From Escherichia coli (GTDB lineage Bacteria > Pseudomonadota > Gammaproteobacteria > Enterobacterales > Enterobacteriaceae), in NCBI RefSeq assembly GCF_003334305.1, contig NZ_QOWS01000021.1: a stretch of 64,000 nucleotides of DNA; one strand, written 5' to 3'. Numbering within the stretch: position 1 is the stretch's first letter; every line of letters starts with the position of its first letter. The translations under genes and the position numbers were made by a program. The notes under the pieces were generated by a model, which worked only from the letters and a program-made list of their open reading frames with translations, was not told the origin of the DNA and did no database searches. This document shows positions 15,255-27,380 of this stretch, piece by piece.

Positions 15255-15417
15255 GATTCCTCCTTGCTGCCAGTCGCAACCATTTTTTATCAACCAGGCT
15301 AGCGGTATATCCGAGCAGTGTTGGTATTTCGGATGGCTTCAGCTCAGGCTTACGCTTACGACGATTTGATACTCTGTAGATGTGCCCGTTCATGACACGA
15401 ATAAGCGGTGTAGCCAT
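15247..15417 (-). CDS. ninE: NinE
   Basis: Manual translation [56 protein letters not shown] (56 aa); stop overlaps ybcO start; below ORF-track length cutoff. Confidence 0.75.
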   Translation of the reverse strand: MATPLIRVMNGHIYRVSNRRKRKPELKPSEIPTLLGYTASLVDKKWLRLAARRNHG

Positions 15418-15872
15418 TACGCCTCCTGCTTATCGCGCAGCTGCTGGTATTCACAGCTCTGCGGAATTGTCAGGTGGCAGCCGATATTCATCGCCCAGGC
15501 TTCGACTTTGCACAGGAAGATGTACATCTCGCCGGTTTCCAGCTCTGACGTATGGCGGAGGGATTGGACGGTGGTGACCTCGCCGGACACGACATCTACA
15601 CGGTCTTTGCTTTCGTAGCCGAGATAGGTGTGCTTCATCGCGTCTTTGACCCACTCAGGCGTAGCGAAGGTCTTGCCGCGGGCGATGAGATATTCGCTGA
15701 TCTCCGTGTACCACATGTGGCTGAGCGCGTTCTGCGACAGGCTGCGCTTCTCGCGCCACGGCTTAACCTGCAGGCGTAAGCATTGCCCGGCATCCAGCAA
15801 TGGCTGAATCTGCTGGCCGATGGCCGCGAAGTTACCGCGATGGAGTTTGATGCCGTCTACTGGCAGAGTCAT
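15417..15872 (-). CDS. ninB: NinB recombination protein (YbcN)
   Basis: 151 aa MTLPVDGIKLHRGNFAAIGQQIQPLLDAGQCLRLQVKPWREKRSLSQNALSHMWYTEISEY... Confidence 0.88.
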   Translation of the reverse strand: MTLPVDGIKLHRGNFAAIGQQIQPLLDAGQCLRLQVKPWREKRSLSQNALSHMWYTEISEYLIARGKTFATPEWVKDAMKHTYLGYESKDRVDVVSGEVTTVQSLRHTSELETGEMYIFLCKVEAWAMNIGCHLTIPQSCEYQQLRDKQEA

Positions 15873-16136
15873 ACGGCCTCCCTAACGGAAACCGCAGAAT
15901 GCAGAAAATCGCAGGTGCATTTCTGCATCTGTGACAAGGTGATGAGTTCAGATTGTGGTCGCATTTAAGTCCCCTTAAATGCGCAGAAGTCACCGGAGTT
16001 GTTCAGGCTCCGATGAGAGGATTATGGCGGATTGATTACGATAAATCAAAACTATCTTGAAGCCAAAACAGTGATCTTCGCTTTAAAAACCTTGTATACT
16101 TTCACCTAATCACAGCCAGAACTATGGATCTAACCA

Positions 16137-16514
16137 ATGACCAACAAAGAAAACAAAGATAAATATATTAACAAGTTCAAGAAAGAGCTTTCAAAATATA
16201 TACAACCAACTGCTGGAGTGGACATTCAATTATTTAACTCTAAGGATGGTGGTGGTGTAATTAAAGCCACTTTGAATAGAAGTGGAAAAAGAAAATCATC
16301 TATTGCAGGTAATTTTACTAAATTAGGTGAGGCAATTACCTCGAGTGGGCAGAGGGTTTTTGGTGGTGATCTATCAAATGTAAATTTTTACGGAACAAAT
16401 ACGATTTTTGATGGAGATACAATATTTTTAATTAAATCACCTGATTCAGAGGAGTGGTCATCACAAAAAGCTTCCAAAGACGTAGAGGGCATCGTATTTG
16501 GAGGGAAAAAATGA
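16137..16514 (+). CDS. Hypothetical soluble protein (125 aa), moron gene 1
   Basis: ORF MTNKENKDKYINKFKKELSKYIQPTAGVDIQLFNSKDGGGVIKATLNRSGKRK...; AT-rich; opposite strand to neighbours; stop overlaps next gene start (ATGA); no family recognised. Confidence 0.55.
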   Translation: MTNKENKDKYINKFKKELSKYIQPTAGVDIQLFNSKDGGGVIKATLNRSGKRKSSIAGNFTKLGEAITSSGQRVFGGDLSNVNFYGTNTIFDGDTIFLIKSPDSEEWSSQKASKDVEGIVFGGKK

Positions 16515-16939
16515 TTAACATTACTACTAAGGATGGCACTCAAGTCAGTGGTGAAGTAAGAGATCTAGTAATTCTTCTTGAAACTGATGGAAAAACGGTG
16601 TCTGATTATTTGCAGCCAATCCCTCCCAAAAAAGATACACACTGGAGCATGATTTTCATTCCGGTAGCAATTTATATACTACTTAATCTTGTATACATTA
16701 TTGCTCACCCATTATTTCCTGAAAAATATCTAAAAACATCAACATCTATATTTCTATTCATTTCCTTCATATTAAGTGCAATAGTAGCATATTTTGTTTT
16801 CCATAAGCATAAATCTGCCACTCTATCCATATGCAGCTTAGTGTTCTTAGTGTTAATTGTAGGTGCTAACGTAGGGTTTATCAGTTACAGCGACCTAACA
16901 CAAAAAGCGACGCAAAAATTAGATAGTTTGTCTAAATAA
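16511..16939 (+). CDS. Hypothetical membrane protein (142 aa, three predicted TM helices), moron gene 2
   Basis: ATG at 16511 preceded by GGAGGG SD; MINITTKDGTQVSGEVRDLVILLETDGK... then hydrophobic segments WSMIFIPVAIYILLNLVYIIAHPLF, IFLFISFILSAIVAYFVF, LSICSLVFLVLIVGANVGFISY. Confidence 0.6.
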   Translation: MINITTKDGTQVSGEVRDLVILLETDGKTVSDYLQPIPPKKDTHWSMIFIPVAIYILLNLVYIIAHPLFPEKYLKTSTSIFLFISFILSAIVAYFVFHKHKSATLSICSLVFLVLIVGANVGFISYSDLTQKATQKLDSLSK

Positions 16940-17017
16940 TTATGTTGCCATGCGAAGTATGCATGGCTGCATGTCTGCCTTCCATTTAAAATGGGCTAAG
17001 ACCTATAACCCTAAATA

Positions 17018-17731
17018 TTATTCTTTATTATCTTCTTTACCACTTCGCACCATCCCGTTCGACTTGTTGCGGTTGTACTTCGCCTGAAGCAGCTGGATTG
17101 GCGTCGGGCCATGCTCGGCAGCCGGTGCTGCAATCGCCCGGCGCACAGGCGGTACTGGTTTGCCCTCGGTGACGCGCCTCTCCCACATGTCCAGCAGATC
17201 GCCGGCTTCACGCGCCAGCTCACCATGCGTTAACTGGCGCTCTGTGCTGCGGTGGCGCAGTTCGACGCAGATGTGGTACATGACAGGCTGTGACCACGGG
17301 AAATGCTCGCTGGAAGTGAATTCGAAGGAACGATTACGCCAATCCCAGTATTCGGTTATGACTTGGTCAACAGTGATACCTAACGCCCCGCCACTCTGCT
17401 TACACCACGCTACGAACTGGCCGGGCGACGGCAGGAATGGTCGCTCCTGTCGGCGGGCCACGCGCATTCCGGCGTTAACCTGTTCCATTGTGGTGATCCC
17501 GTTTTCCCGGAAAGCCAGAACCCACTGGCGGCGAATTTCGTTCAGTTCGTTCTGGTCACGGTTAGCCAGGCTCGCAGGGAAAGTTGCCAGCAACTGGCTG
17601 AATACACCGTTGATGATCTGCGCTACCTGCTGTACCTGCGGCTTTTCGTCGTACTGTTCCGGCATGTTGTTGGCGATCCGGCGCATCTGCTCACGGTCAA
17701 AGTTAACCATCTGTGCGGCGATGTTTTTCAT
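17018..17731 (-). CDS. P: Replication protein P-like (DnaB helicase loader), lambda-like N-terminus with divergent C-terminal half
   Basis: 237 aa MKNIAAQMVNFDREQMRRIANNMPEQYDEKPQVQQVAQIINGVFSQLLATFPASLANRDQ... matches lambda P over the N-terminal ~110 aa; remainder differs from my recollection of lambda P. Confidence 0.8.
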   Translation of the reverse strand: MKNIAAQMVNFDREQMRRIANNMPEQYDEKPQVQQVAQIINGVFSQLLATFPASLANRDQNELNEIRRQWVLAFRENGITTMEQVNAGMRVARRQERPFLPSPGQFVAWCKQSGGALGITVDQVITEYWDWRNRSFEFTSSEHFPWSQPVMYHICVELRHRSTERQLTHGELAREAGDLLDMWERRVTEGKPVPPVRRAIAAPAAEHGPTPIQLLQAKYNRNKSNGMVRSGKEDNKE

Positions 17732-18657
17732 AAATCCACCCCGTAAATCCAGTCAGTGTTCGTCAGGTCGAGTTTTGGTTTGCCGGCTGTCACGCCAGCC
17801 TGTTGCTTGTTTCGGTTGATTTCGAGCTGGGTCCACTTGTCGCGGAGTTTGGCCGGACTCAGCACGTTACCGGACCAGAAGTTGTCCTGGCAGGCCCAGC
17901 GAAACAGTACACACATGTCGCGGTGGTTACGTCCATCACGTTCACGCATCAGACGGATATCGTTAGCCCACCCTGCAAAATTCGGTTTTCTGGCTGATGG
18001 TGCGATAGTCTTCACCATGTCAAACATCCACTCTGCGGCGGTCAGGTCTTCTGCTGTCCCCCACTTGCTGCCGTTCTGAATCGCAGCATCCGCTTTCACC
18101 ACAGGAAGGTCGTTTTCTGGCAGGTCAGAGGATTCGCCAGAATTCTCTGACGAATAAGGTTTTATATTGTCTTTTGTTAGTTTGTCTTTTGTGTTTACCG
18201 GATTCGGGTAAGTGCCTTTACCTGATTTGGGTAAACTTTTCTTACCTGATTCAGGTAAATTTACCTCTTTCAGGTAAACTTTATTTTTCTTACCTGATTC
18301 GGGTAATGTTGACCATTCACTGACCACATTATTAATGCCTATATTCCGCCCGCTCTGAATAAAAATCCCACGCTTTACCAGAACACTTTTTGCAGCAGAA
18401 CACTTGTGCGGCAATATCCCGGTCAACTCGGAAAGTTGCTCGTTGCTCACCCAATCCAGTTTTTTATTAAAGCCATATGTTTTGCGCATGACAGCCAGGA
18501 AGACCAGAAGCTGGTGCTGTGTTAATCCGGCCAGCATTACAGCTTCCAGCAACTCATTTGCAATGCGCGTATAACCATCATCGAGATCTGCCACGCGCGG
18601 CTCCTTTTGTGCCGCATCCGGCACAGGAAAATTGAATATCTCAGCAGTGTTTGCCAT
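17728..18657 (-). CDS. O: Replication initiator O-like
   Basis: ORF 17728..18747 trimmed to ATG at 18657 with GGGAGG SD (MANTAEIFNFPVPDAAQ...); C-terminus ...ANDIRLMRERDGRNHRDMCVLFRWACQDNFWSGNVLSPAKLRDKWTQLEINRNKQQAGVTAGKPKLDLTNTDWIYGVDL matches lambda O; iterons inside the gene. Confidence 0.85.
   Translation of the reverse strand: MANTAEIFNFPVPDAAQKEPRVADLDDGYTRIANELLEAVMLAGLTQHQLLVFLAVMRKTYGFNKKLDWVSNEQLSELTGILPHKCSAAKSVLVKRGIFIQSGRNIGINNVVSEWSTLPESGKKNKVYLKEVNLPESGKKSLPKSGKGTYPNPVNTKDKLTKDNIKPYSSENSGESSDLPENDLPVVKADAAIQNGSKWGTAEDLTAAEWMFDMVKTIAPSARKPNFAGWANDIRLMRERDGRNHRDMCVLFRWACQDNFWSGNVLSPAKLRDKWTQLEINRNKQQAGVTAGKPKLDLTNTDWIYGVDL
18195..18307. repeat. Replication origin iterons (five ~18-bp direct repeats) inside the O gene, with adjacent AT-rich tract at 18130..18194
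   Basis: tttaccggattcgggtaa, tttacctgatttgggtaaa, cttacctgattcaggtaaa, tttacctctttcaggtaaa, cttacctgattcgggtaat; encode the repeated LPESGKK peptide in O. Confidence 0.8.
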
Positions 18658-18743
18658 AATTCCTCCCGCAATGAGTGTGTTACGATTTGCACCTGAAAGT
18701 CGGTTCTGTTCCCGCAGACCGACTTTCGCCATTTTTAAACCTG

Positions 18744-19289
18744 TCATATTGCCCCCAACATGGTGGTAACCATCGCCATCAATGGACCAGCCAGATCCGG
18801 GTCCACACGAAACATCGACACAATACCTTCACTCATCTCCTTCAGTTTCTGGTGGCGTGGTGCGTTGAGAATGACAGCCTGTTTTGCCTCACTGAGTTCC
18901 TTTTCCATTTCAGCCAACCGAGTCATGAAGCTATCCTGCTCAACCAGGTAACCGCGATATTCCAGCGGTAGTACCGCCAGAATTGCCGGGGTCAGTTCAC
19001 GCACGTTATTTCGGTATTTTTCAGAATCGAATTTGTTATCGAGGAAGCGGAACAGCTTCTGGCGTGCACGGCTGACATCATCAGGGAAATCGATGGTGCC
19101 GCCGCCCTGTGCTCGATACTCATTCACAATGAGTGCGGCAACAACATCCTGATTATCTGCAGCCGACCAGGCGCGGACGGCATCACGGATTTTTTCGTGG
19201 CCTGGCACCTGTTTTGTTTGAGAACGATTTATCACCGCAGTCGGGCTAAATCCGCTAGTCTGTTGGTATGTAAGTGGTTGCATAGTCAT
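18744..19289 (-). CDS. Hypothetical regulatory protein at the cII position (possibly YdaT-like)
   Basis: 181 aa MTMQPLTYQQTSGFSPTAVINRSQTKQ...NEYRAQGGGTIDFPDD...; placement directly downstream of cro-like gene; family assignment uncertain. Confidence 0.5.
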   Translation of the reverse strand: MTMQPLTYQQTSGFSPTAVINRSQTKQVPGHEKIRDAVRAWSAADNQDVVAALIVNEYRAQGGGTIDFPDDVSRARQKLFRFLDNKFDSEKYRNNVRELTPAILAVLPLEYRGYLVEQDSFMTRLAEMEKELSEAKQAVILNAPRHQKLKEMSEGIVSMFRVDPDLAGPLMAMVTTMLGAI

Positions 19290-19615: not shown

Positions 19616-19643
19616 TTGACCATCAATACGCAAGCGTATAAAT
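19616..19643 (+). promoter_or_regulatory. Candidate PRM promoter (-35 TTGACC, -10 TATAAAT region) giving a leaderless or near-leaderless cI mRNA
   Basis: ttgacc at 19616..19621 and tataaat at 19637..19643; cI ATG at 19652 has no SD, as for lambda PRM/cI. Confidence 0.45.
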
Positions 19644-19651
19644 TAAAACTT

Positions 19652-20344
19652 ATGAAAAAAGAAACTCTTGCTGATCGCTTAAATCTAGCGATGGAACAAT
19701 CTGGAATGTCTCAAGGCGCTCTTGCAAAGGCGTCTGGCGTAGCTCAACCCACAATCTGGAGACTGACAAGCGGCAACGCGCGCGGCTCAACAAAAATTGT
19801 TGAAATAGCTAATGCATTGGGTGTTCGAACAGAATGGCTCTCTTCAGGCATAGGCCCGATGAGAAATGACGGTCAACAATCAGGGAAGCCTGCTGTCAGC
19901 CATTCCAAATACTTCAAAATTGACGTTCTTGATATAGAAGTCAGTGCCGGGCCGGGTGTAATCAACCGTGAGTTTGTAGAAGTTCTACGCTCGGTTGAAT
20001 ACTCGTTTGACGATGCTCGTCACATGTTCGATGGCAGGAAGGCGGAAAATATCCGCATCATTAACGTGCGTGGTGACAGCATGTCAGGAACGATCGAACC
20101 AGGTGATCTGCTGTTCGTTGATATCACGGTTAAATCTTTCGACGGTGATGGTATCTATGCGTTTCTGTATGACGACACCGCCCATGTAAAACGCCTGCAA
20201 ATGATGAAGGATAAGCTGCTGGTTATCTCTGATAACAAGAGCTACTCACCGTGGGACCCGATCGAGAAAGACGAGATGAACCGCGTGTTCATCTTCGGGA
20301 AAGTCATCGGGAGCATGCCGCAGACATATAGAAAGCATGGGTAG
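19652..20344 (+). CDS. cI: CI-type prophage repressor (N-terminal HTH, C-terminal S24 LexA-like autopeptidase)
   Basis: ORF 19616..20344 trimmed to ATG 19652: MKKETLADRLNLAMEQSGMSQGALAKASGVAQPTIWRL... and C-terminal ...VRGDSMSGTIEPGDLLFVD...HVKRLQ (Ser/Lys dyad motifs). Confidence 0.88.
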   Translation: MKKETLADRLNLAMEQSGMSQGALAKASGVAQPTIWRLTSGNARGSTKIVEIANALGVRTEWLSSGIGPMRNDGQQSGKPAVSHSKYFKIDVLDIEVSAGPGVINREFVEVLRSVEYSFDDARHMFDGRKAENIRIINVRGDSMSGTIEPGDLLFVDITVKSFDGDGIYAFLYDDTAHVKRLQMMKDKLLVISDNKSYSPWDPIEKDEMNRVFIFGKVIGSMPQTYRKHG

Positions 20345-20473: not shown

Positions 20474-21613
20474 ATGGCAGCGGTTGAATTTCAATTGTCT
20501 AGGAAGATGATTGATTGGATAGCAAATTCTCAAGGAGTTTCTATCGAAACTCTTGCTGACCAAGTCATGCCCAAAAAGATTAATAAATTTCTTAACGGAG
20601 TGGTAAGTAAATCCGCAGCAGAAAAACTGGCAAAAATTGGAGGAATCCCTTTCGGTTTTTTATTTCTTGAAACGCCACCAACTCCAGCCAAACCCAAGAT
20701 CCCTGACTTAAGGCAAGCTATAAATAGCCGTGAGTTAGGAAAAGATTTTTTTGATGTTTACTATGATATAGAATATAAACTTGAGTGGTACAAAGACTAT
20801 TTAAGAGAAAATGGTAATGATGATCCACTCGATTTTATTGGTAAATTTAAATTTAATAGAAAATTAAATTATAAGGTTGTTGCTACAGACATAGCAAACA
20901 CAATACATTTTGATATACAAAAAGAGATAAAAAATGTCACTTTTGAGAGCTATTTTTCTAAAGTGGCAAAACTAATAGAAGACACTGGCGTATTAGTTTT
21001 CAAGAATGGTGTTGTGGGTAATAATAATAAAAGAAAACTTGACACGCGAGAGTTTCGTGGTTTCTGTATATCTGATAGCGTTGCTCCGATCATTTTTGTA
21101 AATAGCTCGGACGCGTTATCTGCGCAGGTATTTACATTATTTCATGAGGTGGCTCATCTTTGGCTTGGAGTCGATGGAGTCTCTGGGTGGGACACAGAAA
21201 AAAACATAGAATCTTTTTGTAATAAAGTTGCTGCTGAAATCTTAATGCCTGATAATCTCTTCAAATCTTTCTGGCTTAATGCATCCAGCGATAATAATTA
21301 TTATCGAGTAAAAGAGGTTTCTAAGTTATTTAAGGTTAGTGATTTCGCTTGTGCAATCAAAGCGTTACAATTAGATTTGATAGAAAGAAACACTTTGGAG
21401 ATAATTAAAGATCAAGCTTACAATAAGCCCAAAAAAGAATCCAATGGTGGTTCTTTCTTTAACACATTACCTGTTCGTAACAGTCCAAAACTTACGAATA
21501 TAATAATTTCCAAAGCAATGTCTCAACAATTACCATTAAGGGAAGCAGGCGTACTGCTAAATGTAAAAGCAGATACAGTTGTTGAATTTTATAAAAAACG
21601 AGAATCTCTATGA
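20474..21613 (+). CDS. HTH (XRE-like) domain fused to ImmA/IrrE-family zinc metallopeptidase (COG2856/DUF955-like), 379 aa
   Basis: AGGTGA SD 4 nt upstream; N-terminal HTH-like segment (SIETLADQVMPKKINKFLNG...AEKLAKIGGIP); HExxH motif in FTLFHEVAHLWLG and downstream E...AAEILMP motif typical of ImmA/IrrE peptidases; AT-rich. Confidence 0.75.
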   Translation: MAAVEFQLSRKMIDWIANSQGVSIETLADQVMPKKINKFLNGVVSKSAAEKLAKIGGIPFGFLFLETPPTPAKPKIPDLRQAINSRELGKDFFDVYYDIEYKLEWYKDYLRENGNDDPLDFIGKFKFNRKLNYKVVATDIANTIHFDIQKEIKNVTFESYFSKVAKLIEDTGVLVFKNGVVGNNNKRKLDTREFRGFCISDSVAPIIFVNSSDALSAQVFTLFHEVAHLWLGVDGVSGWDTEKNIESFCNKVAAEILMPDNLFKSFWLNASSDNNYYRVKEVSKLFKVSDFACAIKALQLDLIERNTLEIIKDQAYNKPKKESNGGSFFNTLPVRNSPKLTNIIISKAMSQQLPLREAGVLLNVKADTVVEFYKKRESL

Positions 21614-22122
21614 TTCATAATGGAAAATTCTTAATTGATAGTAATGTCTTCATAGAGGCAAAAAACTTTGCATATAACTTCAATTATTGCAAAATATTTT
21701 GGGATTTTCTTCTCGCTTTACACATTAATGGTCTGATTTATAGCATTAATGCTGTAAAAAAAGAACTATGTGCAAAAGATGATCCATTGTGTAAATGGAT
21801 TAAAGAAGAGTTACCATCATCATTCTTCGAAGATGAGCATAGTTCAATAGAAAATTATGCAAAGTTAATAAATTGGTCAACTAAATTAGATGTTACCGAA
21901 AAGGCAAAGTTTGATTTTGCAAGCCATGAAAAAGCAGATGCTTTTTTAATAGCCCATGCGATGACACATGGATATACTATTATTACCCATGAGAAACCAT
22001 CCGGTGGCAAACCTAAAAAAAGAATAATGATCCCGGATGCTGCTGCTTCTCACGGCGTTAAGACATTAACACTATATGAATTTCTTCCAAGATACGCTAG
22101 TCATAATTTTTCTTTGAAATAA
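21610..22122 (+). CDS. PIN-like (DUF4411-type) putative nuclease, 170 aa
   Basis: Start overlaps upstream stop (ATGA); N-terminal FLIDSNVFIEA resembles the first acidic PIN strand; ADAFLIAHAMTHGYTIITHEK resembles a later PIN motif; AT-rich; domain call from memory of DUF4411. Confidence 0.65.
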   Translation: MIHNGKFLIDSNVFIEAKNFAYNFNYCKIFWDFLLALHINGLIYSINAVKKELCAKDDPLCKWIKEELPSSFFEDEHSSIENYAKLINWSTKLDVTEKAKFDFASHEKADAFLIAHAMTHGYTIITHEKPSGGKPKKRIMIPDAAASHGVKTLTLYEFLPRYASHNFSLK

Positions 22123-25926: not shown

Positions 25927-26269
25927 GGCCTGTCAGTTTCTTAAGATATCCAGACCAACCGCCACCAACTGGATACGAACAGGCCGCCTACAGGCAACAC
26001 GTAAAGATCCAACCAAGCCAAAATCTCCTTACCTCACAACACGGCAAGCCTGCATTGCGGCGCTTCAGTCTCCGCTGCATACTGTCCAGGTGAGCGCGGG
26101 TGATGGCATAACAGAGGAAAGAAAATGTCACTCTTCCGCAGAAATGAAATATGGTATGCCTCGTATTCGCTCCCGGGCGGGAAACGAATTAAGGAATCTC
26201 TTGGCACAAAGGACAAGCGGCAAGCTCAGGAGTTGCACGACAAGCGAAAAGCAGAACTCTGGCGAGTAG
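25898..26269 (+). CDS. Excisionase-like protein (Xis/AlpA-type HTH); reading frame continues into int
   Basis: [38 protein letters not shown]... directly upstream of int; unusually long overlap with int (about 145 nt), so 3' end uncertain. Confidence 0.45.
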
Positions 26270-27288
26270 AAAAGCTAGGGGATTTACCTGATGTCACTTT
26301 TGAAGAGGCCTGCCTAAGATGGCTTGAGGAAAAAGCTGATAAAAAATCTCTCGATTCAGATAAAAGCCGGATTGAGTTCTGGCTTGAACATTTTGAGGGT
26401 ATAAGGCTTAAAGATATCTCGGAGGCAAAGATTTACTCTGCTGTAAGCAGAATGCATAACAGAAAGACGAAAGAAATATGGAAACAGAAAGTTCAGGCCG
26501 CCATCAGGAAAGGTAAAGAACTGCCTGTTTATGAACCAAAGCCAGTATCAACTCAGACAAAGGCAAAGCATCTTGCCATGATAAAGGCCATTCTCCGTGC
26601 TGCAGAACGCGACTGGAAGTGGCTGGAAAAAGCGCCTGTCATCAAGATACCAGCGGTCAGAAACAAGCGAGTCAGATGGCTGGAAAAGGAGGAAGCAAAA
26701 CGCCTTATTGATGAGTGCCCCGAACCACTGAAATCTGTCGTCAAGTTTGCGCTGGCAACTGGTCTGAGAAAGTCGAACATCATAAATCTGGAATGGCAAC
26801 AAATCGACATGCAGCGACGAGTTGCCTGGGTGAATCCAGAAGAGAGCAAATCAAACCGCGCCATTGGTGTGGCGCTGAACGATACCGCCTGTAAAGTGTT
26901 GCGTGATCAAATAGGCAAGCATCACAAATGGGTGTTTGTACATACCAAGGCGGCTAAGCGAGCAGATGGAACATCAACGCCTGCGGTCAGGAAGATGCGC
27001 ATCGACAGCAAGACATCATGGCTATCAGCTTGTCGTCGTGCAGGAATTGAAGATTTCCGTTTCCATGACCTCAGACACACCTGGGCAAGCTGGCTGATTC
27101 AGTCAGGCGTCCCATTATCAGTGCTTCAGGAAATGGGCGGATGGGAGTCCATAGAAATGGTTCGTAGGTATGCTCACCTTGCGCCTAATCATTTGACAGA
27201 GCATGCGAGGAAAATAGACGACATTTTTGGTGATAATGTCCCAAATATGTCCCACTCTGGAATTATGGAGGATATAAAGAAGGCGTAA
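26125..27288 (+). CDS. intD: Tyrosine integrase (IntD/DLP12 type)
   Basis: 387 aa [38 protein letters not shown]... with C-terminal ...[16 protein letters not shown]...RRYAHL catalytic motifs; adjacent to tRNA-Arg. Confidence 0.92.
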
Positions 27289-27303: not shown

Positions 27304-27380
27304 TGGCGCGCCCTGCAGGATTCGAACCTGCGGCCCACGACTTAGAAGGTCGTTGCTCTATCCAACTGAGCTAAGGGCGC
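27304..27380 (-). tRNA. argU: tRNA-Arg (anticodon UCU), argU
   Basis: Reverse complement GCGCCCTTAGCTCAGTTGGATAGAGCAACGACCTTCTAAGTCGTGGGCCGCAGGTTCGAATCCTGCAGGGCGCGCCA; cloverleaf-compatible, ends CCA. Confidence 0.93.

Follow-up and report, generated by a model that had tools for sequence, protein, structure and literature searches.

What might two AT-rich genes, read against the direction of the early genes on either side of them, be doing inside an Escherichia coli prophage? The question is raised by a stretch of 64,000 nucleotides (nt) from E. coli contig NZ_QOWS01000021.1 (assembly GCF_003334305.1), referred to here as the window, in which two adjacent plus-strand genes, called here A and B, lie between ninB on one side and P and O on the other, all three of which are on the minus strand. 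We find that A and B are real, co-evolving genes that are under purifying selection and mobile, and that their family is wide and reaches well beyond prophages, which an earlier note on this DNA had not foreseen. As to what they do, we tentatively favor, at a little less than an even chance, an abortive-infection or exclusion module composed of a sensor or regulator (A) and a membrane effector (B), which falls among the functions that the earlier note had put forward by inference (superinfection exclusion, abortive infection, toxin/immunity).

The gene pair and its borders

Several observations carry the conclusion that A and B are genes and that they travel together. In comparisons without synonymous saturation, the ratio of nonsynonymous to synonymous substitution rates (dN/dS) is 0.08 to 0.11 for A and 0.08 to 0.13 for B, and the G+C content (GC) of the cassette stays at 0.33 to 0.36 in hosts of 0.50 to 0.57. 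The identity matrices of A and B are correlated across 11 pairs (Mantel r 0.95, p 2e-4; r 0.75 for the distant pairs alone), and therefore the two genes evolve as one unit. All 12 cassette variants analyzed (11 with a complete B) have A followed by a B-like gene of about 125 to 142 amino acids (aa) with three hydrophobic helices, which overlaps the end of A in 11 variants and starts 3 nt after A in the twelfth (locus L025). Conservation as a pair, on which the earlier note had made its reading depend, was found from E. coli to Mesorhizobium. The notion that the two are chance open frames in AT-rich junk DNA can appeal to the annotation of both as hypothetical only and to the weak Shine-Dalgarno (SD) sequence of A, but it is effectively refuted and keeps almost no probability, since the dN/dS ratio is about 0.1, synonymous change being saturated, since length, overlap, and architecture are kept down to 20 to 30% identity across phyla, and since the fold of A is predicted with confidence.

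The sequence ATGA at 16511-16514, in which the start of B overlaps the TGA stop codon of A, and the GGAGGG SD sequence ahead of B both read as previously described and suggest that the two genes are translationally coupled. A longer, GTG-initiated frame for B (16454, 161 aa) is an unlikely product, because all homologues start with MI(N/I)ITTKDG and the C terminus of A is conserved up to the overlap.

Judged by its sequence, the pair is an autonomous, opposite-strand, AT-rich two-gene moron, for which activity from its own promoter is predicted. The prophage that carries it is an intact, DLP12-like lambdoid element of E. coli, and the cassette extends from about 16090 to 16970 within the variable P-ninB interval, where other E. 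coli prophages carry ren and assorted small open reading frames; the pair is missing in most of the E. coli prophages compared that share the P and ninB flanks. Its GC is 0.337 against 0.495 and 0.519 in the 2-kb flanks (in 300-bp windows, 0.31 to 0.37 against 0.52 to 0.61 in the surroundings), which puts numbers on a difference first judged by eye. In the alignment with the cassettes of 76% and 67% protein identity, homology begins at about 16090 and stops just past the hairpin that follows gene B, the sequences being unrelated outside both limits. Atypical GC, a conserved -10-like element and 3' hairpin, patchy presence, and an orientation independent of the flanking genes thus all fit the moron status that had been proposed for the pair.

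Upstream of gene A, the window reads TGTATACT, which the earlier note had called an extended -10 element. The element is present, but it is not a canonical extended -10, because its TG directly abuts TATACT with no spacer base, and a generic sigma-70 promoter scan gave no call at this position, because the -35 is weak. At the aligned position, the 76%- and 67%-identical cassettes read TGATATAGT, which is a canonical TGnTATAnT, while the sequence farther upstream is unrelated. Since the element is conserved amid unrelated upstream sequence, we accept it as the probable, cassette-borne promoter.

At the other end, the palindromic hairpin downstream of gene B marks the 3' end of the cassette and may serve as a terminator or RNA stabilizer; the 55-nt stretch that contains it (16936-16990) has a folding free energy (dG) of -16.6 kcal/mol (z = -2.8). 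The terminator function is uncertain because there is no U-tract, and no RNA family was found by Rfam in 15300-17600. On the minus strand, the terminator-like hairpin next to P would insulate the cassette from early-operon read-through, and the two further hairpins on the ninB side stand in what is presumably the position of tR2 on the lambda map. With minus-strand hairpins on both sides, the cassette would thus be shielded from un-antiterminated early transcription. The coordinates are collected in Table 1.

Table 1. Positions in the window of genes A and B, their neighbors, and the signals around them
Feature	Position	Strand	Remarks
Gene A	16137..16514	+	125 aa; WP_000182282.1; phrog_18061; RefSeq "hypothetical"
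Gene B	16511..16939	+	142 aa; WP_000608370.1; phrog_16940; RefSeq "hypothetical"
-10-like element TGTATACT	16093..16100	+	about 36 nt upstream of gene A; predicted promoter element
Shine-Dalgarno sequence GGAGGG for gene B	16500..16505	+	inside the end of gene A, 5 bases before ATG 16511
Palindromic hairpin GCCATGC-N7-GCATGGC	16947..16967	.	directly 3' of gene B; kept in all aligned cassette variants, flanks diverge
Terminator-like hairpin with T-run	16993..17011	-	just past the P stop codon
Two terminator-like hairpins	15892..15927	-	between the cassette and ninB
ninB/YbcN	15417..15872	-	flanking gene
P	17018..17731	-	flanking gene
O	17728..18747	-	flanking gene

Occurrence in prophages, plasmids, and chromosomes

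Among 5,426 complete E. coli genomes, 46 contain the 1,021-bp region; the copies are all at least 99% identical and all chromosomal, and many hosts are represented. Close homologues (60 to 99% identity) are confined to Escherichia/Shigella, Enterobacter, and Klebsiella, and variants of 76%, 67%, and 30% identity occupy the same slot in Klebsiella and Enterobacter prophages. In lambdoid prophages, the slot always runs from the replication/nin region to ninB or its analogue DUF1367, and the pair always lies on the opposite strand, including the 30% variant in Enterobacter. The Klebsiella and Enterobacter carriers have quite different replication, nin, Q, and lysis modules, yet the lengths of the pair are unchanged, with a stop/start overlap of 4 nt, or 1 nt in locus L008. 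One further pair belongs to an HK97-like prophage, where early genes lie on one side of it and lysis genes on the other. Two local features of these prophages were also recorded. In L008 (5665-7348; lambdoid prophage, GCA_030132385.1), a gene for a 377-aa protein with a weak match to a pore-forming colicin domain and a convergent 174-aa colicin-immunity-like gene adjoin the A/B pair, between ninB and the replication region. In the Enterobacter prophages with the 30% variant (L021, 9080-10000), about 900 bp without a called gene separate DUF1367 from A, compared with 264 bp in the window.

Distant homologues of A, at 20 to 35% identity, are found in other prophages and in the chromosomes of distant bacteria, and a B-like gene comes next in every locus read. 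Chromosomal copies were found in Mesorhizobium and on metagenomic contigs, some of them beside PIN, DUF4160/DUF2442, or Xre-MbcA modules. The range of the pair reaches from Enterobacteriaceae as far as Mesorhizobium; structural matches, which concern only A, add Desulfobacterota, Pedobacter, and Planctomycetes.

A 42% variant (125 aa plus 142 aa) lies directly after rep, overlapping it, on 4.7-kb mobilizable Col(Ye4449)-type plasmids of Klebsiella, E. coli, and Salmonella; a tblastn search of PLSDB returned no copy of this plasmid variant. In sister plasmids, the slot after rep is taken up by other cargo, namely genes for a DUF4231 protein and a ThsB-like TIR protein (PADLOC, 2.5e-14) in pCP8-3-ColYe4449 (L050, NZ_CP053742.1, 300-1594) and a type II DNA methyltransferase gene in NZ_CP074190.1 (L051, 3944-4669).

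These settings bear on the possibility that the pair is a toxin-antitoxin (TA) or addiction module, in which B would be a membrane-damaging toxin and A its coupled antitoxin, the pair would stabilize the plasmid or prophage by killing cells that lose it, and any anti-phage effect would be secondary. We regard this as unlikely. A regulator gene ahead of its effector gene, with a 4-nt overlap, is what type II TA operons typically show, although A has no autoregulatory DNA-binding domain. The pair is found on very small plasmids directly after rep, but these plasmids already carry a RelE/Xre-type TA pair. The chromosomal copies beside PIN, DUF4160/DUF2442, and Xre-MbcA modules would be in keeping with addiction, and GhoS/GhoT, a type V TA system, is a known combination of a soluble antitoxin with a membrane toxin. 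On the other hand, the pocket-like polar residues of A and its relative fused to an HNH nuclease (see below) fit a sensor or an enzyme better than a neutralizing antitoxin. A natural knock-out can be read in E. coli CV839-06 (L038, NZ_CP025753.1, 738-2317), where IS1 within gene A leaves a 49-aa stump and an intact B in a viable strain; this speaks against the TA reading, but ambiguously so, given that the polarity of IS1 may silence B.

The GhoS/GhoT comparison itself can be taken only so far. GhoS, an RNase of Cas2-like fold, is a small soluble protein encoded upstream of the small membrane-damaging GhoT, a 57-aa peptide, in one operon. A and B likewise have the soluble gene upstream and the membrane gene downstream in one operon, but the systems share no homology, and B, unlike GhoT, has a conserved cytoplasmic domain of 45 aa, which suggests a regulated, not constitutive, toxicity.

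A role outside genetic conflict would be lysogenic conversion or a housekeeping membrane function; examples are a contribution to stress tolerance, immunity to bacteriocins, and a small channel or transporter that has a regulatory subunit. We consider it quite unlikely. The patchy distribution on mobile elements, the foreign base composition, the TIR and methyltransferase genes in the same cargo slots, and the HNH fusion of one A relative all argue against such a role, even though there is no homology to any defense, toxin, or exclusion family, some copies lie among ordinary chromosomal genes, and the pair in L008 adjoins the colicin-like gene and its immunity gene. The link to a colicin-like gene is limited to that one locus, and, unlike colicin immunity proteins, B has no Colicin_im match. 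Class I holins resemble B in having three transmembrane (TM) segments, but B has no holin match in Pfam or PHROGs, and the lysis genes are about 4 kb away from the cassette, which is on the opposite strand; separate holins are present.

Some other features of the host prophage were noted in passing. A tRNA-Arg(tct) gene (27304-27380, minus strand) lies directly beside the integrase gene (26125-27288, plus strand), and this junction marks where the prophage ends, at argU, the site that DLP12 uses; the other 36 kb of the window belong to the host chromosome. An OmpC/NmpC-like porin gene (12728-13810, plus strand), opposite in strand to the late genes and located between a Q-like antiterminator and the lysis cassette, is the classical DLP12 nmpC moron; the DNA upstream of it (12300-12750) is very AT-rich, with a GC of 0.28 to 0.30. 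An iss/bor lipoprotein gene is found at about 10658-10951. Directly downstream of the cI-like repressor gene (19616..20344) lies another AT-rich pair (20474-22122, plus strand) with stop/start overlap, encoding an ImmA/IrrE-type metallopeptidase (379 aa) and a DUF4411 protein (170 aa). The peptidase matches the PADLOC CapP (1e-14) and Rosmer RmrA (6e-8) models, whereas the DUF4411 protein has no match; the pair, in the slot where lambda has rexAB, may be a second defense or TA-like moron in the same prophage.

Proteins A and B

Protein A has no hydrophobic segment (maximum KD19 0.43) and, like the three hydrophobic helices of B, agrees with what had been read from the sequence at the outset, a soluble 125-aa protein followed by a 142-aa membrane protein. 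A profile of A, searched against 1.8 billion cluster representatives, retrieved 111 clusters at an E value of 1e-3 or below, nearly all of 120 to 135 aa and 20 to 35% identical. Residues Y10, G39, F84, G86, T87, K100, W107, and D115 are invariant or nearly so across the family, and the conserved Y/T/K/W/D set is reminiscent of a ligand or catalytic pocket. No match to Pfam was found for A or for any of 73 members of its family.

The AlphaFold2 (AF2) model of A, computed from a 73-sequence alignment, has a predicted local distance difference test (pLDDT) score of 93.1 and a predicted template modeling (pTM) score of 0.87; an earlier run on a shallow alignment (pLDDT 58) was discarded in its favor. 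The predicted order of elements is alpha1, beta1-beta2-beta3, alpha2, beta4-beta5, alpha3-alpha4, and on this model A has a new fold, without a relative in the PDB; sequence searches of the PDB with the profiles of A and B gave only noise. Two assignments based on the order of secondary structure, a Roadblock/profilin-like domain and a PD-(D/E)XK nuclease, were dropped after the 73-sequence model was obtained, and the latter is also disfavored by conserved residues that lie off the expected D...(D/E)xK site.

When the model was searched against AFDB50 with Foldseek, the matches fell into two groups. The first is the A family itself, uncharacterized proteins of about 125 aa from Desulfobacterota, Aeromonas, Photobacterium, Mesorhizobium, Pedobacter, and Sedimentisphaera (TM-score 0.8 to 0.9). 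The second is a domain inside many predicted "site-specific DNA-methyltransferase (adenine-specific)" proteins of 900 to 1040 aa and inside one "type I restriction-modification (R-M) specificity domain" protein (E values of 1e-6 to 1e-5, TM-score 0.6 to 0.77). One metagenomic homologue of 447 aa (P0104; L029, 246-1589), known from only two contigs of about 1.7 kb, joins an A-like domain (residues 1-120) to an HNH nuclease (191-231; Pfam 3.4e-12; PADLOC type IV restriction HNH 8e-7) and an uncharacterized C-terminal region.

Other unusual members of the family are less easily read. Four proteins of 219 to 243 aa (P0116, P0132, P0136, and P0083) have about 100 extra N-terminal residues before the A domain, which are either true fusions or the result of mis-called starts; P0083 has what may be a signal peptide. 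In P0013 (127 aa, from a 1.1-kb ENA contig), the last 50 residues are identical to A and are joined to pentapeptide-repeat sequence, and this protein is probably an assembly or gene-calling chimera.

Protein B is predicted to be an inner-membrane protein, with hydrophobic segments at about residues 48-64, 80-96, and 103-119 by hydropathy. All 12 partners examined share one architecture, in which a conserved soluble N-terminal domain (about 45 aa) precedes three TM helices. Residues 1-36 are nearly invariant among the 60 to 99% identical homologues and form the most conserved part of B, and the distant B-like proteins, about 125 to 138 aa long, retain a short soluble N terminus, with the consensus MK-x-G-x-[VI]-EGTP-[EQ]-E-[IV], ahead of their three hydrophobic helices. 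By the positive-inside rule (K/R before TM1 and HKHK in the TM2-TM3 loop), the N-terminal domain would be cytoplasmic. Pfam gave B weak and inconsistent matches only (one at 3.2e-4), as expected of transmembrane composition, and none was assigned; a resemblance of the N-terminal motif to ankyrin repeats was weak and judged compositional.

The architecture of B can be set against envelope superinfection exclusion, in which B would block the entry of incoming phage DNA, as P22 SieA, T4 Imm, and HK97 gp15 do, A would aid assembly or stability, and the cell would survive. P22 SieA/SieB, T4 Imm, and HK97 gp15 are, like B, small inner-membrane proteins, phage- or prophage-encoded, that protect their carrier, and a small membrane protein from an opposite-strand prophage moron is just what this explanation asks for; two very divergent alleles in the same lambdoid slot would also fit a specificity that diversifies against competing temperate phages. 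Nevertheless, we hold it to be very unlikely, for the following reasons: (i) the known exclusion proteins are single, phage-restricted proteins that act without a soluble cytoplasmic partner, whereas A/B is a two-gene system that is found also on small plasmids and on chromosomes of free-living bacteria without phage genes; (ii) the most conserved part of B is predicted to be cytoplasmic, not periplasmic; (iii) the HNH-fused relative of A points to intracellular action; and (iv) B has no match to the Pfam families SieB or Imm.

Candidate function and its meaning

The evidence on function is circumstantial but points one way. A role in conflict between genetic elements is suggested because (i) three kinds of mobile element, namely prophages, small plasmids, and chromosomal islets, have the pair as accessory cargo, and its composition is foreign, (ii) the same plasmid cargo slot holds a ThsB-like TIR gene or a type II methyltransferase gene in sister plasmids, and (iii) one A homologue is fused to an HNH nuclease. 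The A domain occurs beside a membrane protein or else joined to a nuclease, a pattern typical of sensors whose effectors can be exchanged.

In the abortive-infection or exclusion module that we favor, the carrier would express the cassette, in a lysogen from its own promoter and on the plasmids together with rep. B would insert into the inner membrane, its N-terminal domain of 45 residues facing the cytoplasm, and A, with its predicted new fold and nearly invariant Y10, G86-T87, K100, W107, and D115, would act as its sensor or regulator, kept in fixed proportion to B by translational coupling. Infection by another phage would disturb the balance between A and B, upon which B could oligomerize and damage or block the membrane, so that replication of the invader or entry of its DNA would be stopped. 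After induction of the prophage, N-antiterminated early transcription would run antisense across the cassette and might provide an off-switch during the phage's own lytic growth. The topology of B, the binding of A to B, the membrane damage, the trigger, and the anti-phage phenotype are the steps of this scheme that we infer.

One of the systems compared is lambda RexAB. RexA is a cytoplasmic sensor and RexB a small polytopic inner-membrane effector, and RexAB aborts infection by membrane depolarization. Both systems are prophage-expressed pairs of a soluble and a membrane protein, and RexB (144 aa) is close in size to B; in contrast, there is no sequence similarity, RexA (about 279 aa) is much longer than A, RexB has four TM segments against three in B, and rexAB belongs to the immunity operon, after cI, whereas the A/B pair is found in the P-ninB interval, oriented against its neighbors. 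No Rex family came up when A and B were scanned against Pfam-A at E values up to 10.

A published precedent for a soluble partner with a three-TM defense effector, and counted as such here, is the two-gene defense system type II Metis (MisC plus MisB), which pairs a soluble cytoplasmic protein with a three-TM protein without a Pfam domain (bioRxiv 10.1101/2025.11.05.686725). Its membrane protein binds ligand through a small part inside the cell and is predicted to oligomerize into a pore, and its soluble partner, MisB, a HAD-like phosphatase (PF13419), prevents autotoxicity (bioRxiv 10.1101/2025.11.05.686725). A/B shares with it the soluble plus three-TM composition and the placement of B's most conserved segment on the predicted cytoplasmic side, a match of architecture alone. 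Unlike MisB, A has no HAD or other Pfam match, its predicted fold starts with a helix and has no Rossmannoid core, and nothing ties the pair to m6dAMP; B and MisC are likened by architecture, not by sequence. With type II TA modules, the likeness is one of gene order and overlap. The A/B pair thus resembles RexAB, type II Metis, and membrane-toxin TA pairs in outline and is a member of none of them, the comparison with MisC being one of architecture.

Several points weigh against the defense reading and should be set beside these likenesses. Neither A nor B matched any family among the 5,027 models of PADLOC-DB v2.0.0 at an E value of 1 or below, four divergent pairs gave no PADLOC match at 0.1 or below, and 16 neighboring proteins from the chromosomal and prophage contexts had none either, so that enrichment in defense islands is not supported. 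The cassette is rare, with 10 loci in IMG/VR in addition to the few E. coli genomes counted above, and GenBank phages yielded no copy by DNA search or tblastn. The split A of CV839-06 indicates that A is dispensable, at least when expression is disrupted, and that the cassette can be lost without harm. Within its family, A has pI values from 5.5 to 9.7, and therefore no conserved nucleic-acid-binding character is evident. The functional case as a whole, moreover, is drawn from sequence and predicted structure.

Other resources were likewise silent on both families. PHROGs lists the two only as "unknown function," NCBIfam gave for A and B only matches far below its cut-offs, and their accessions are absent from the DefensePredictor supplements. 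Brenes and Laub reportedly screened E. coli prophage genes for defense in 2025. A literature search under the A and B accessions and PHROG identifiers returned nothing, although the genes may be described in that work (Cell Host Microbe); as far as we found, the two families are unnamed and unstudied.

A bolder extension, possible but doubtful in our estimation, is that the pair is the founding example of a broad anti-phage system, in which a cytoplasmic sensor of new fold, responding to an infection cue that may be a small molecule or DNA-related, would gate an interchangeable effector, either a three-helix membrane pore or a fused HNH nuclease, and the fold of the sensor would recur in a domain of large, type IIG-like adenine methyltransferases. 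That the A fold is linked both to adenine methyltransferases and to an HNH fusion hints at a sensing domain common to restriction-like and membrane-effector systems.

To conclude, if the pair does serve in phage defense, the catalogue of bacterial immunity would gain a compact, roughly 0.9-kb module that has a new sensor fold and moves between prophages, small plasmids, and chromosomes, and two places, the P-ninB interval in lambdoid phages and the slot after rep in Col-type plasmids, would be cargo sites worth mining. If it is an addiction module instead, it would represent a new family of membrane toxin and regulator that is present in clinical E. coli, Klebsiella, and Enterobacter.

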